Part shown: positions 1,147 to 61,849 of the stretch, one piece after another
Layout: each line of letters opens with the position of its first letter
How positions within the stretch are numbered: the stretch's first letter is position 1
Assembly (NCBI GenBank): GCA_000004695.1
Contig: CM000152.2
Location: 5,920,001 to 5,984,000, forward strand
Direction: 5' to 3'
From: Dictyostelium discoideum
Taxonomy: Eukaryota
DNA length: 64,000 bases
The notes under the pieces: generated by a model
Seen by the model: the letters and a program-made list of their open reading frames with translations, nothing else
What the model was told of the DNA's origin: nothing
Databases searched by the model: none
Made by a program: the position numbers and the translations under genes

Positions 1147-10200
<9,054 letters not shown>

Positions 10201-16399: not shown

Positions 16400-17206
16400 T
16401 TTATTTTATTTCTTTAATAAAAAAAAAAAAATTAATAATTAAAAGTTGGAGAGAAAAAAAAAAATAAAAATAAAAAAATGGGTTTGGTTTGTTTTAGGCC
16501 TAAAATAAATAAATTAAATATCTTAAAAAAAAACATTTGGCCAAAAGTTTTTTTTTTTTTTTTTTTACATTTTTCGGTATAATCGGAATAAAATTTTAAT
16601 TTTGTTTTGTTTGGGGTGTGAAAATGAGAAAGCGGTGTGACTTTTTTTGAGGTGATATTTGCAGTATTTGGGAAAATAAAAAAAAAACATTTTTTTGAGT
16701 ATAATTCTTAGGAAATCTTATCACAAACATTAAAAATAGATTTATTTATTAATTTTTTTTTAATTTTTTAATTTTTTTTTAATTTTTTTTTTTTTTTATT
16801 TTTTTTTTTTTTTTTTGAGCAAGGGTCGAAAATATCAGCGAACTATACCAAAAAAAACAAAAAAAGCTTTTTTTATTTGTTTTTTTAATGTAATTAATTG
16901 ATTTGTAATTTTGAGGACTATTGGAAAAAATAATATTTTTAAAAAGAGTTTGTGGCTTCAAATTAAATAATAATTATAGTGTGAGAATTTAAAAAAAAAT
17001 AAAAAAAATAAAAGTGATTAAGTCTTATAACCTTTTTAATTTTTTTTTAATTTTTTTTTTTTTGTTAAAATTAGTTTCATAAATAGAAAAAATATCTAAA
17101 TAATTTGTCCATATTTTTTTAATTAATTTTTAATTTAAGATACAATTATAATTTTGATTAAATTTAAATAGAGATTATTTTTGGTCTAGTACAACTAAGT
17201 TTTAGG

Positions 17207-17217
17207 GGAATCGAACC
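17207..17217 (-). promoter_or_regulatory. extra B box (GGTTCGATTCC) about 30 bp downstream of tRNA-Leu
   Basis: Minus-strand GGTTCGATTCC matches the Pol III B-box consensus GGTTCGANTCC. An extra B box downstream of tRNA genes is a known Dictyostelium feature. Confidence 0.5.
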
Positions 17218-17247
17218 TTTGATTCAAAGAGCATTCTTAAAAATTAT

Positions 17248-17329
17248 TGTAAGCTAAGGGATTCGAACCCTTGTATCAATGATATTGCAGCCTTAATGCA
17301 ACCCCTTAGACCAGCTCGGGCAAGCTTAC
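17248..17329 (-). tRNA. tRNA-Leu (anticodon AAG), 82 nt, type II with long variable arm
   Basis: Hand-folded: acceptor GTAAGCT/AGCTTAC+A, D-loop GGTCTAA, anticodon stem TTGCA/TGCAA with loop TTAAGGC (U33, AAG, G37), variable hairpin TATCATTGATAC, T-arm AAGGG-TTCGAAT-CCCTT. Confidence 0.85.
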
Positions 17330-17339
17330 TTTTTTTGAA

Positions 17340-18025
17340 ATTTTATTAATAATATCCTGTTAAATATAGGTTTTTTTATAATCAATAGCAAACACCTTCC
17401 ATTTAAAGAAATTAAAAAAATAATATACATGAAAGGTAGAGACCTATTATGGAGATACACACTTAAAGCACTACCAAAAATATACAACATGCCATGCCAA
17501 CAGTGTCGGGAAGATGAGACTTCAGAACATATATTCTTCGACATCAAAAACACACAAGAAATCTTCAACTACACCTTAACCAAGTGTGGACACCACTCAC
17601 ACCTGGAATGTTAAGATTTTAAACCATCTACAAATTGCACTAATAGCCAATTTAATAGCTATTATATTCGAAAAAATTTGACACAAAAGAAACAAACTCA
17701 TCCACGATGAAATAGAAATAATAATTCATAGACAACAAGTCATACGTGAACTATTTAAAACACAAAGAGCTGCATGGGACAGAACACAAGCGGCTATAAA
17801 CAAAACATTAAAAATCAAATCAAAGCAACGGCAAGAAGAACAAAATAAATTAGACTCATTAATCTCGCTAAAGCTATTACAATTTAGCAGACAATGGAAC
17901 TCACCTCTTCACGCAATAGCACTTTCCAAACATCTCAAAAAATACAATAATTCACTCAGTACTCTCTATAAATAAAAAAAAATAAAAAAATAAAAAAAAA
18001 ATAAAAAAAAAAAAAAAAAAAAAAA
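17340..18025 (+). mobile_element. 5'-truncated non-LTR retrotransposon 3' end (ORF2 C-terminal Cys-His motif + 3' UTR/C-module + oligo(A)), TRE5-type position beside the 5' end of tRNA-Leu
   Basis: ORF 17429-17614 ends in a C..C...H..F..C-type motif (CQQCREDETSEHIFFDI...CGHHSHLEC) typical of L1-like ORF2 C-termini. Non-AT-rich 3' UTR with GCTGCATGGGACAGAACACAAG, terminating in an A-rich tail at 17970-18025. It is head-to-head with tRNA-Leu; its 5' boundary is inferred, not read, but the nearest element-like sequence begins within about 50-100 bp of the tRNA 5' end. Confidence 0.6.
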
Positions 18026-18041
18026 CCTGGAACCCAAGTTA

Positions 18042-18343
18042 ATCAGAAAATTTCCAGATTTTTAACTTTTTAAAGTAAAATAAAAAAAATAGAAAGAAAA
18101 AAAGATGAAAATTACAAACAACACCACAAATATAAAGCAACACAAATGCCTACAAGAAATAAGTGAAATTGTGGATAAAACTCAACCAAAAAAAAACCAA
18201 TTCAAATACGTCATAAACATCAATCATGAAGCTGATGATAAAATAAAAAAAGATTTAGAAAAAAATTTGGACAAAAAAGATGTTTTAATCAAAAGTAATA
18301 ATCCAATTCAAAATTCGAAACAAAAAAAAAAAAAAAAAAAAAA
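18042..18343 (+). mobile_element. short A-tailed element fragment beginning with the 29-nt motif ATCAGAAAATTTCCAGATTTTTAACTTTT (motif also upstream of tRNA-Thr)
   Basis: Sequence-complex segment with a small ORF (18105-18347) ending in A22. The 29-nt 5' motif is identical to 61631-61659. Confidence 0.35.
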
Positions 18344-18397
18344 GTAAACTAACCCCTCTTTTAGAGACCCTGTAAAAAAAAAAAAAAAAAAAAACTA

Positions 18398-18625
18398 AAA
18401 ATAAAATGAGATCTAGCATCTCAAGGAGAAGCAACTTTTTTTTTTTTTTACCTAAAAGCGGTGTATTGTTATATTTTATTACATTTTTAAATTTTTAGAT
18501 TTTAAATTTTTAAATTTTTATATTAAGGAGAAGCAACTATTTTTTTTTTTTTACCTAAAAGCGGTGTAGGAGAAGCAACTTTTTTTTTTTTTTACCTGTG
18601 ATCAGACCTTCAAGGAATGTCCTTG
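18398..18625 (-). repeat. array of oligo(A)-terminated retroelement 3'-terminal modules (minus strand: ...CCGCTTTTAGGT-A14 / ...TGATCACAGGT-A14), each followed by AGTTGCTTCTCCT
   Basis: Three copies of aggagaagcaact+T13-15+acct(aaaagcggtg|gtgatcagacc) on the plus strand, i.e. poly(A)-tailed ends on the minus strand. The same modules recur at 20237-20435. Confidence 0.6.
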
Positions 18626-18692
18626 TGTCTTTTCGGCGGTGTTTGTTAAACGATTTTATTTTTATTATTCAATTGTATTAAATTTTTTAAAC

Positions 18693-18740
<48 letters not shown>

Positions 18741-18745
18741 ACTAC

Positions 18746-20236
18746 TTAAATTTGAAGAGGGTTCGGAAATGCTGGGGTTTGCCAGGCTTTGTTGAATTTG
18801 TATTTGTGAAGATCTTGATTGGTGTTTTTTAGTATTGCTTCGTCGTGTTTGATTTTCTTTAGTGTGATGAATTTTTCAGTTTCGATGAGATTTAGTAATT
18901 CTGTTTCTATGACCTTTTGCTCGAATTTTGGCTCTGGTTTGCTTTCATCAGTGTTGAACAATTTGTGACAGATTATCTTCCATAATTGGTGTGCTATTAT
19001 TCCTATGAGATTGGGGAAGATTCTCTCAGTTCTGTTGTATTTTGATATGTCTAAGGTATCCATTGACCATCTGTGGATTTTGATGAATGATAATTTGTTA
19101 ACTGTTGATATGATGGTTTTTTCAATATCTAGGATATCTTGGCATAGAGTGAAGAGGTGAGAATAAGGGTCTCTGAATAGGTGGCCACAGATCTTGCATC
19201 TGGTGTCTCTTTCGTGGTTGATACCTGGAAGTGATCTTGAGAAGAATCTGAAGAGGGTGTTTCTACCTTTTTGGTGAGAAATGCTGTTGATGTTTATGAA
19301 TACTTTGGGTATTGCTGTGTTGTATCTCACCGCCCATAACTTCTGCCATTCTGTTCTTCTTGGTGTTGGGTGTCTGTCTTTGATCATGAGTTCGTAAATT
19401 TCTTTCAGTTTTAGTGGTTCATCATTGTCGTTTCTTATACAGTCTGGAAGTTCATTTATCTTTGGATGATTTTGGTAAAATTTGACTCTGAATACACCCC
19501 AGTGTCTGCACATATCGTTGAGGGTTGAAGTGTGGGCTTTTTTCTACTTAATTGCTCCATGTACCATTCTTGTAAAGTATTGTTGTTGTTGTTGTAGTTG
19601 TTATGGAGTAGCCTGTTCATGTACCAGATTTTGAATGCTATATGTCTTAGTTCTATATCCCATAATTTTATGCCTCCTTCTTTCCAATCTGCATATGCTC
19701 TGTCTATTTTCATCATAGTTTTGTATTTTCTCTCTTCTGTATATGTATTCTTAACTGAGGAGAATAAGAACCATCTGGTCATGTTATTTATTTCCTCAAT
19801 TTGTTCTTCATTTAGATTATCCATGTATTGATGGTATGTTAATTTGGATAGAACGTATGTTTTGAGAATTGTCATCTTTGCCTTCATCGTTATTGCTTGT
19901 GATTTCCATTTTATTAGATTGTTTTTCATTTCTTGGATTAAAGTGTTGTATTTTGAATTTAAACCTGTTTTGGTGAAATTGAGGCCAAGATATCTTTCTG
20001 GGACTGTACTCTCTTGGAATGGTAGATCGTGTGGTTTATCTCCTATTGCCATCATTACTGTTTTCTCTTTGTTTAACGATGATGATGTTGCTGAGCAGTA
20101 CTTTTGGATTTTAGTATTAATTTTCATTAGTTCTTCTGTGGAGTTTGTAAAGGTTGCTATGTCGTCAGCAAATGCAGTGAGTTTTAATGATTTGGAATTT
20201 GGTAGAGTGAAGCCTTTGATTGTATTATCATTGTAG
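18746..20236 (-). mobile_element. non-LTR retrotransposon ORF2 remnant (RT thumb + C-terminal CCHC region), frameshifted/5'-truncated; TRE3-type position downstream of tRNA-Val
   Basis: Two overlapping-frame minus ORFs (18746-19513, 19456-20127) with L1-like RT C-terminal motifs (YLGLNFTKTGLNSKYN..., CKICGHLFRDPYSHLFTLC). Same strand as tRNA-Val and starting about 80-270 bp downstream of it. Flanked by the poly(A)-module repeats. Confidence 0.7.
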
Positions 20237-20435
20237 GAGAAGCAACTAATAATTGCGTTATCTTTTTTTTTTTTTTACCTAAAAGCGGTATATTGTTATA
20301 TTTTATTACATTTTTAAATTTTTAGATTTTTAAATTTTTAAATTTTTATATTGTTATATGTTGATATTTTTGGTTATATTATTATAATTGCGTTATCCAA
20401 TTTTTTTTTTTTTACCTGTGATCAGACCTTCATGC
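20237..20435 (-). repeat. second copy of the oligo(A)-terminated terminal modules (AGTTGCTTCTCCT / CCGCTTTTAGGT-A15 / TGATCACAGGT-A14)
   Basis: Near-identical to 18398-18625, including the 70-nt taatataaaaatttaaaaatttaaaa(a)tctaaaaatttaaaaatgtaataaaatataacaata block. Confidence 0.6.
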
Positions 20436-20506
20436 GTTATCCAATTCAAAAAAAAAAAAAAATATAGGTTTTTTAAATGTAAATTTAAATGAAAAATATT
20501 AGTTTG

Positions 20507-20580
20507 TATTCAGAGCGGGAATCGAACCCACGACCTAATCCGTGTTAAGGATTCGTGATAACCGACTACACCATCCGAAC
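20507..20580 (-). tRNA. tRNA-Val (anticodon AAC), 74 nt
   Basis: Hand-folded: acceptor GTTCGGA/TCTGAAT (two G-U) + A, D-arm GTGTAGTCGGTTATCAC, anticodon stem AATCC/GGATT with loop TTAACAC, variable AGGTC, T-arm GTGGG-TTCGATT-CCCGC. Nearly identical in D-arm and anticodon arm to metazoan tRNA-Val(AAC). Confidence 0.85.
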
Positions 20581-20599
20581 TAATCGATATTTTTGAAAA

Positions 20600-20800
20600 A
20601 ATTTAGCTTGTACCGGTTTTTTAAAAACAAGGTTTAATAATCAAAGATCAAATAATAAACGAACTTAAAAAGAAGCAGCATGGGACAAAGCAAAATCTAA
20701 CATCAACAAACTAATTAGACAACGAACCAACATTCAATTCCGTCAACACACTTTTTAGATAAAAAAAAATAAAAAAATAAAAAAAAAAAAAATAATAATA
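20600..20800 (+). mobile_element. retroelement 3'-UTR (C-module-like) fragment + A-rich tail, element-like sequence begins within about 20-90 bp upstream of the tRNA-Val 5' end (TRE5-type position)
   Basis: Contains AAAGAAGCAGCATGGGACAAAGCAAAA, clearly related to 17764-17790 (AAAGAGCTGCATGGGACAGAACACAAG) in the element next to tRNA-Leu. Ends in an A-rich run at 20760-20800. Confidence 0.5.
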
Positions 20801-61149: not shown

Positions 61150-61777
61150 TTTTTTTTTTAGTATAAAATTAATTTTTTTAATATTAATTTTATTTTTTAA
61201 TATTCTTTTTCCTAATGTTTATAAATTATAATTTTTAATTTTGTTTTGATTTTTTTTTTAATATTTAAAATGTAATTAATTTAATTAAAAAAAAATAAAA
61301 AAAAAAATAAAAAAAAAAAAAAAAGTCATTTTTGTATTTTAATTTATTTTTTTTGTTTTTTTTTTTTTTGTTTTTTTTATTGGTGGGGTGATAACTTTAA
61401 CGCTTCAATTTAATTTTCCTTATAGATAAAAGGAATTGAAAAATTATTTTATAAAATAATAAAATATATAAATTAAATTAAGATATTGTTAAATAAATAG
61501 AATTAAATTAATAAAATAATTATATATTTTTAAATAAATTAAATAAAAAATAGACTAAATTTAAATAAAGTCCTAGCATTTTTGTTTAATTGAATGATAA
61601 CCCTTCTAAACTATCCAATTCCTTTTGGCTATCAGAAAATTTCCAGATTTTTAACTTTTCATTTTAAAAATAACAAACCTTTTTTTTTTCAATTGGATTA
61701 AAAAATAACTTTTTTTTTTGAATTGGATTAAAAAATAACTAACTTGTATTTCTAAAAAAAATGGAAATTGCAAAAAT

Positions 61778-61849
61778 GGCTCCTTAGCATAGTGGTATTG
61801 CGCTTCCCTAGTAAGGAAGAGGTCATGAGTTCGATCCTCATAGGAGCCT
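61778..61849 (+). tRNA. tRNA-Thr (anticodon AGU), 72 nt
   Basis: Hand-folded: acceptor GGCTCCT/AGGAGCC + T, anticodon stem CTTCC/GGAAG with loop CTAGTAA, T-arm ATGAG-TTCGATC-CTCAT. Confidence 0.85.

Follow-up and report, generated by a model that had tools for sequence, protein, structure and literature searches.

A probable nested pile-up of tRNA gene-targeted retrotransposons downstream of a tRNA-Val gene in Dictyostelium discoideum

The window analyzed here is a stretch of 64,000 nucleotides (nt) of chromosome 3 of Dictyostelium discoideum AX4 (contig CM000152.2, positions 5,920,001 to 5,984,000); coordinates given without a locus name refer to this window. It includes two tRNA genes predicted with ARAGORN on the minus strand, tRNA-Val(AAC) at 20580–20506 and tRNA-Leu(AAG) at 17329–17248, and downstream of tRNA-Val lie five oligo(A)-terminated modules with two types of 3' end, also on the minus strand. 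Including the short duplications that adjoin them, these modules form an array at 18424–20444, which corrects the span of 18398–20435 given in a preliminary description of this DNA. The array interrupts a 5'-truncated remnant of the retrotransposon TRE5-A on the plus strand (17377–20462). With a probability of about 0.93, we consider the locus a nested pile-up of known tRNA gene-targeted non-LTR (non-long terminal repeat) retrotransposons, in which tRNA-Val is the target gene of five TRE3 insertions and tRNA-Leu the target gene of the older TRE5-A remnant.

Read on the minus strand from tRNA-Val, the array begins after a spacer of 61 nt with the duplication TTGGATAACGCA (20444–20433), followed by the first insertion, X1 (type 1, 20432–20401), an extreme 5' truncation of 19 nt (TGAAGGTCTGATCACAGGT) plus A13. 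The second copy of TTGGATAACGCA (20400–20389) is overlapped by another duplication, GATAACGCAATTAT (20397–20384), which precedes X2 (type 2, 20383–20263), comprising 107 nt that end in CCGCTTTTAGGT plus A14; the second copy of GATAACGCAATTAT (20262–20249) and a lone T (20248) then lead into the first copy of a 13-mer, AGTTGCTTCTCCT (20247–20235). Three further insertions alternate with this 13-mer in the order T-I1-T-I2-T-I3-T, where T is AGTTGCTTCTCCT: I1 (type 1, 20234–18581; 1,641 nt plus A13, 5'-truncated within the reverse transcriptase (RT) domain), the second 13-mer (18580–18568), I2 (type 2, 18567–18539; 15 nt, ACACCGCTTTTAGGT, plus A13 and a T), the third 13-mer (18538–18526), I3 (type 2, 18525–18437; 76 nt ending in CCGCTTTTAGGT plus A13), and the fourth 13-mer (18436–18424), which runs on into the remaining TRE5-A sequence (TGAGATGCTAGATCTC..., from 18423). 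The type 2 terminus, ...CCGCTTTTAGGT-A(n), is thus seen three times and the type 1 terminus, ...GGTCTGATCACAGGT-A(n), twice. The five insertions have five different 5' ends, A-tails of A13–A14, and duplications of 12, 14, 13, 14, and 13 nt. The tails had been reported as A14–15, a count that included the first A of the 13-mer; likewise, the statement that every oligo(A) module abuts the 13-mer holds for three of the five modules (one with an extra T), the other two abutting the duplicated TTGGATAACGCA and GATAACGCAATTAT. Extreme 5' truncations such as X1 and I2, whose element sequence amounts to just 19 and 15 nt ahead of the A-tail, are easily overlooked in repeat annotation.

As first described, exactly four copies of AGTTGCTTCTCCT occur in the window, all on the minus strand, against an expectation of 0.03; four copies were reached in no shuffle. 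A further sequence, GATAACGCA, has three copies inside the array against 0.07 expected over the whole window; like the 13-mer, the two other repeats that flank insertions far exceed what chance would give. An independent assembly of the locus (GCA_054883475.1) contains the same array, differing across 17200–20650 by four single-nucleotide polymorphisms and one 6-nt homopolymer length change; the array is therefore not an assembly artifact.

The longest insertion, I1, carries the features by which the inserted elements can be classified. Its open reading frame (ORF) remnant (minus strand, 18746–20234) includes a FADD motif, a C-x2-C...H-x4-C finger (CKICGHLFRDPYSHLFTLC), and a Pfam RVT_1 match (E = 2.7e-7) confined to the C-terminal quarter of the profile (positions 146–204 of 205), bearing out the RT/CCHC remnant noted earlier. 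In all, I1 consists of this ORF2 remnant with one frameshift near 19520, a stop codon, an internal A33 run (18704–18738), a 108-nt terminal module, and A13. The C-terminus of RT and the finger are the only ORF2 domains to survive in the TRE3s of the window; across I1 and its relatives, the full TRE3 complement of apurinic-type (APE) endonuclease, RT, and C-terminal zinc finger is found, with RVT_1 at E = 3e-37 in one relative (P0005) and the endonuclease domain PF03372 listed for the protein of a type 1 copy (P0003, locus L003). At the protein level, the closest relatives of I1 are Dictyostelium proteins named only "hypothetical protein".

Independent genomic copies (L001–L006), among them L001 and L003 from another D. 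discoideum assembly and L002 from D. citrinum, allow both types of 3' end to be assigned to elements. Over its full length, I1 is 97.6% identical (1654 nt) to the D. citrinum copy (L002 6863–8506) and about 98% identical to those at L001 and L003; X1 matches the type 1 3' ends of all three loci at 100%, and I1, X1, and these three copies all terminate in ...GAAGGTCTGATCACAGGT-A(n). The type 2 insertions match the 3' untranslated region (UTR) of a different element at L001: 92.7% identity for the segment containing X2 (20413–20263 with L001 7658–7805), 100% for I2 (L001 7776–7804), and 98.9% for I3 (L001 7716–7805). The ORF2 DNA of the two types is only about 67% identical (I1 with L001 6199–7805). 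All five insertions have an oligo(A) tail, 5' truncation, and a target-site duplication, and the inserted elements are TRE3-type non-LTR retrotransposons of two subfamilies, all 5'-truncated. The preliminary description had suggested a single element family at one target; instead, two subfamilies occupy three neighboring cut sites.

The same comparison locus, L001, holds a second TRE3–TRE3 tandem, downstream of another tRNA-Val and with two different duplications. A type 2 remnant (L001 5971–7810) and a type 1 remnant (7847–8611) are joined there in a single predicted protein, ACTFIT_004581 (P0001, 545 aa), a chimeric gene model spanning two adjacent TRE3 remnants (L001 5971–8611). Both TRE3 types have an internal A-run followed by a terminal module of 105–125 nt with its own oligo(A); the internal runs of A33–35 after the ORF2 stop lie at 18704–18738 in the window, at 7630–7670 and 8443–8481 in L001, at 8358–8382 in L002, and at 8436–8459 in L003.

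This arrangement bears on a different account of the array, in which a single composite TRE3 would repeat its oligo(A)-terminated 3' modules internally and have the 13-mer as one of its own parts. The internal run between ORF2 stop and terminal module in both types indicates that some modularity is real, and the 13-mer is in frame with ORF2, where it reads SCFS. However, copies at three loci in two species each have a single terminal module, followed by unrelated duplications rather than the 13-mer, and the two module types belong to ORF2s only about 67% identical. At the 5' boundary of I1, the window reads ...SCFSY/NDNTIKGF and its intact relatives ...LLIDII/NDNTIKGF; the D. citrinum relatives with LLIDII are 97% identical, and the DNA homology of I1 begins at 20233. 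That the 13-mer can be read in frame is thus a coincidence, and its interpretation as ORF2 coding sequence was rejected. Finally, other loci without any TRE3 also have the 13-mer in their TRE5-A C-module. A composite element, which the preliminary description had offered as its alternative, is refuted by the single module per copy in L001, L002, and L003, and we assign it a vanishingly small probability, the lowest of the explanations weighed here.

The sequences that follow each TRE3 copy point instead to the 13-mer as target DNA. After the type 1 ends stand TTGATGTTGATGATGT (L001), TTAATAAATTGAGG (L002), and TTTCACCCACAGTTAAA (L003), and after the type 2 end in L001 stands GTTTTGAGGTTGAT; each is repeated at the 5' junction of its own element. 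The 13-mer occurs once in these three loci, at a place that does not adjoin a TRE3. When the five insertions are taken out of the window together with one copy of every duplication, an empty site is recovered, T15-GAATTGGATAACGCAATTATTAGTTGCTTCTCCTTGAGATGCTAGATCTC. The corresponding sequence, GAATTGGATAACGCAATTATTA(G/T)TTGCTTCTCCTTGAGATGC, is uninterrupted at four loci: D. citrinum L002, where the 13-mer is exact, L001, which has one mismatch, and, by alignment, L005 and L006. Within the C-module stretch AGGAGAAGCAA(C/A)TAATAATTGCGTTATCCAATTC, the variable base is C in all four 13-mers of the window and A in three other D. discoideum C-modules; such a shared local variant is expected if the four were copied from one local template. 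By comparison among these copies, the 13-mer is a duplicated target site, antisense of a conserved stretch of the TRE5-A C-module, and not TRE3 sequence. The question left by the preliminary description, whether the 13-mer belongs to the element or to the pre-integration target, is thus answered in favor of the target; its proposal of a target-site or priming signature stands as to the former and fails as to an element priming motif. Independent copies and the reconstructed empty site together support its core proposal of successive 5'-truncated TRE3-type insertions downstream of tRNA-Val in the tRNA orientation.

The target was not plain intergenic DNA, as that proposal might suggest; it was the C-module of a TRE5-A that predates the insertions, has the opposite orientation, and belongs to the neighboring tRNA-Leu. 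On the plus strand, the remnant contains the C-terminus of TRE5-A ORF2 with its zinc finger (17429–17614) and an A-run, a 3' B-module of about 290 nt with a duplicated ORF1 start, MKITNNTTNIK... (ORF at 18105–18347), an A22 run, the C-module ending in ATCCAATTC, and a terminal A15 (20448–20462). It is flanked by a target-site duplication, TATAGGTTTTTT, read from the sequence at 17365–17376 and 20463–20474. Its 5' end (17377) lies 47 bp upstream of tRNA-Leu (17329), head-to-head and on the opposite strand, and its A15 ends 43 nt (20463–20505) from the 3' end of tRNA-Val. TRE5-A has the structure AB-ORF1/ORF2-BC and inserts about 47–50 bp upstream of tRNA genes, its 5' end facing the tRNA; the 3' B-module is found only in TRE5-A and is absent in TRE5-B and TRE5-C (PMC3159450). 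This 3' B-module and the position rule therefore identify the TRE3 target as C-module sequence of a TRE5-A remnant. The B- and C-modules of the window both end in ATCCAATTC plus an A-run (18301–18343 and 20439–20462).

Other copies have the same organization. Once freed of insertions, the window segment is 90.9% identical end to end (segment positions 2–1094) to L006 5493–6586, with which it is collinear over 1,093 nt, and its C-module was aligned with six other copies. The uninterrupted paralogs are 5'-truncated and lie on the strand opposite the tRNA gene, with 5' ends 48–50 bp upstream (50 bp from tRNA-Val in L001, 48 bp from tRNA-Gln in L002) and duplications of their own (ATACGATTAAATC in L001, CAATATTCCATAA in L002). 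The position of the window remnant, 5' end facing the tRNA 5' end, falls in the same range of about 47–50 bp. In L005, a 444-aa ORF1 starting with MKITNNTTNIK has the ORF-start module in front of it, and a second copy of the module stands behind this ORF1 and leads into the final ~85 nt of the C-module; a duplicated B-module with the ORF1 start, then a C-module, is thus present as expected of TRE5-A. This B-ORF1-B-C layout and the shortened C-module (~85 nt) are those of TRE5-A.2 (PMC3159450). An attempt to name the B-module through protein matches gave only short "hypothetical protein" models, and its identity was settled through L005. The 80-aa ORF at 18105–18347 is itself 100% identical to one such model, D. 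discoideum AX4 DDB_G0282561 ("hypothetical protein"), a match that also places the window on AX4 chromosome 3. This gene model is probably spurious and corresponds to the second ORF1 start, which the dead TRE5-A carries in its 3' B-module.

For the terminal 54 nt of the C-module, a fold with three small stems is predicted (−11.1 kcal/mol, z = −2.0), and the complement of the 13-mer, AGGAGAAGCAACT, lies within these predicted stem-loops; folding of the C-module terminus into small stems has likewise been described for TRE5-A (PMC3159450). The remnant thus shares with TRE5-A (DRE) the ORF2 C-terminus, the B-module with the ORF1 start, the C-module, the oligo(A), and the head-to-head position 47 bp upstream. 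Unlike an intact TRE5-A, the window copy is dead, 5'-truncated, and now in four pieces through the TRE3 insertions.

All five TRE3 insertions share the orientation of tRNA-Val, and their positions were measured from its end in empty-site coordinates. The cut sites fall at +62 (X1), +65 (X2), +79 (I2), and +80 (I1 and I3), or 84–102 bp from the internal B box of the gene (GGTTCGATTCC, starting at tRNA position 53). At every related locus, the element also lies downstream of a tRNA gene in the tRNA orientation and has its own duplication of 14–17 nt; these copies stand at +36 and +57 (L001, tRNA-Val), +53 (L002, tRNA-Gln), and +73 (L003, tRNA-Phe). [quoted passage not shown]

The use of the same site three times by two subfamilies could be taken to mean that the TRE3 endonuclease or RT specifically recognizes the 13-mer sequence, or primes at it, in the manner of R2, and would seek it wherever it is present. 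Against this, the six other TRE3 integrations (X1, X2, and four in L001–L003) have unrelated duplications, and C-modules with the motif or a one-base variant of it are uninterrupted in L001, L002, L005, and L006. Moreover, targeting by distance would itself lead to repeated use of one position, and such reuse is documented for TRE5-A (PMC5391098). Sequence-specific recognition of the 13-mer thus seems highly improbable, only marginally less so than a composite element, and the 13-mer is better read as a target site chosen by its distance from tRNA-Val.

A history consistent with a nested pile-up can be reconstructed. The anatomy of the locus shows that tRNA-Val and tRNA-Leu once lay about 80–95 bp apart on the minus strand. 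A 5'-truncated TRE5-A then integrated 47 bp upstream of tRNA-Leu, head-to-head and flanked by TATAGGTTTTTT, thereby placing its C-module about 45–160 bp downstream of tRNA-Val. Two TRE3 subfamilies subsequently entered the C-module in five separate integrations by target-primed reverse transcription. Every event was truncated at the 5' end, with between 15 nt and 1.64 kb of element retained, and duplicated the 12–14 bp of C-module between staggered nicks. Three events used the same pair of nicks, giving rise to the four 13-mers. The extra T after the tail of I2 is compatible with a 14-nt duplication, TAGTTGCTTCTCCT, and may reflect a first-strand nick one base further upstream.

The same anatomy might instead be produced in one or two events, through template switching by RT or through unequal crossing-over or slippage between the oligo(A)/13-mer repeats. 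I2 and I3 are of the same subfamily and have their last 15 nt in common, and oligo(A) plus 13-mer would provide about 27 bp of homology for slippage. But template switching puts no copy of a target duplication between segments, I1, I2, and I3 are not alike in subfamily or in where they are truncated, and a short I2 upstream of a long I3 is not the arrangement of a tandem duplication. The 14-nt duplication of I2, with its extra T, also fits a separate nick one base away, and X1 and X2 have their own different, overlapping duplications. Although an origin in one or two events is the least improbable of the three alternatives considered, we still regard it as very unlikely in comparison with five separate integrations.

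If targeting is measured from the tRNA gene, each of these integrations would displace the distal copy of the 13-mer, and later events would strike the tRNA-proximal copy. The likely order would then be I3 and I2, followed by I1, and then X1 and X2. A large insertion would move the distal duplication copy beyond the TRE3 window, and I2 and I3 would therefore precede I1; the events at the 13-mer most likely preceded X2, because with X2 present the site would be more than 250 bp from the tRNA.

Several observations weigh against this interpretation of the locus. We infer the order of insertion from geometry, which is its one basis. The only other assembly compared at this locus carries an identical array, and a search for orthologs in other species with the neighboring purple acid phosphatase exon gave no protein match at E ≤ 1e-30. 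The names TRE3 and TRE5-A follow from architecture, position, and descriptions in the literature, not from alignment to type sequences. In addition, TREs typically do not integrate into each other (PMC5391098), and here TRE3s lie inside a TRE5-A, an exception that the paired geometry of tRNA-Val and tRNA-Leu explains.

All components and behaviors seen at the locus are already described for Dictyostelium, and TRE–TRE tandems are known from the literature: TREs reaching an occupied tRNA gene form such tandems, and integration of TRE5-A recurs at one exact position (PMC5391098). The insertions and their related copies share with the TRE3 elements of D. discoideum (TRE3-A/Tdd-3, -B, -C, and -D) an L1-like ORF2 with endonuclease, RT, and zinc finger, an oligo(A) tail, 5' truncation, target-site duplications of 12–17 bp, a position 36–80 bp behind tRNA genes in the tRNA orientation at four different tRNA genes, and tandem stacking at an occupied tRNA gene, with no difference in kind. 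Compared with the usual TRE3, the array has one cut site exactly reused by three integrations and lies inside another TRE rather than beside one. Independent events at an identical nucleotide position relative to the tRNA are shared with TRE5-A at bait tRNA genes (PMC5391098); whereas those events were upstream and in experimental populations, the events in the window are of TRE3, downstream, and fixed in one genome.

The locus is a clear example of TRE stacking at tRNA genes in a compact genome, and its value lies mainly in annotation. It indicates that the tail of a TRE5-A can act as a harmless landing pad for TRE3 where two tRNA genes adjoin, and it exposes gene models that appear spurious (DDB_G0282561 and ACTFIT_004581). 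In addition, two subfamilies between them hit exactly one cut site three times, which is a small data point on the precision of TRE3 targeting. To our knowledge, TRE3 targeting, unlike that of TRE5-A, has not been profiled experimentally.

One staggered cut, 102 bp from the B box, was used three times, and two further cuts lie 15–18 bp closer. TRE3 cleavage may thus be positioned to near-nucleotide precision by tRNA-bound RNA polymerase III factors together with local DNA features; if so, the published range of 40–150 bp would come from a difference in anchor, the internal or the external B box, and not from imprecise targeting. More speculatively, the internal A-runs and terminal modules of both TRE3 types, and the shared ending of the TRE5-A B- and C-modules, might mean that 3' UTRs of this modular kind arose when transcription read through tandem arrays like this one. 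Near-nucleotide positioning of TRE3, taken together with this more speculative read-through origin of the 3' modules, is a tentative proposal that we think unlikely as a whole.

Possible external B boxes were also noted near these genes. The sequence GGTTCGATTCCCC (minus strand, ~17205–17217), about 30 nt downstream of tRNA-Leu, resembles an external B box, and similar sequences occur downstream of tRNA genes in L002 (6274–6284, GGTTCGAATCC) and L003 (~5950, GTTCGACTCC). The repeated motif TTGAATTGGAT was considered as an external B box and rejected, because it corresponds to the end of the TRE5-A modules, ATCCAATTC with its A-run, read in antisense.

A smaller arrangement of related sequences lies elsewhere in the window, upstream of tRNA-Thr(AGT) (61778–61849). 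Two tandem units on the plus strand at 61631–61739, each of the form T10-(C/G)AATTGGAT-TAAAAAATAAC, have their right end (61739) 38 bp upstream of this gene, and 49 bp upstream of it is the start of the last ATCCAATTC fragment. Read on the minus strand, the units appear as two 9-nt TRE5-A-type 3' termini (ATCCAATTS plus A10), each adjoining GTTATTTTTTA; a 47-nt B-module-like stretch stands beside them (61631–61677). The arrangement looks like one target site reused by extremely truncated TRE5 insertions.

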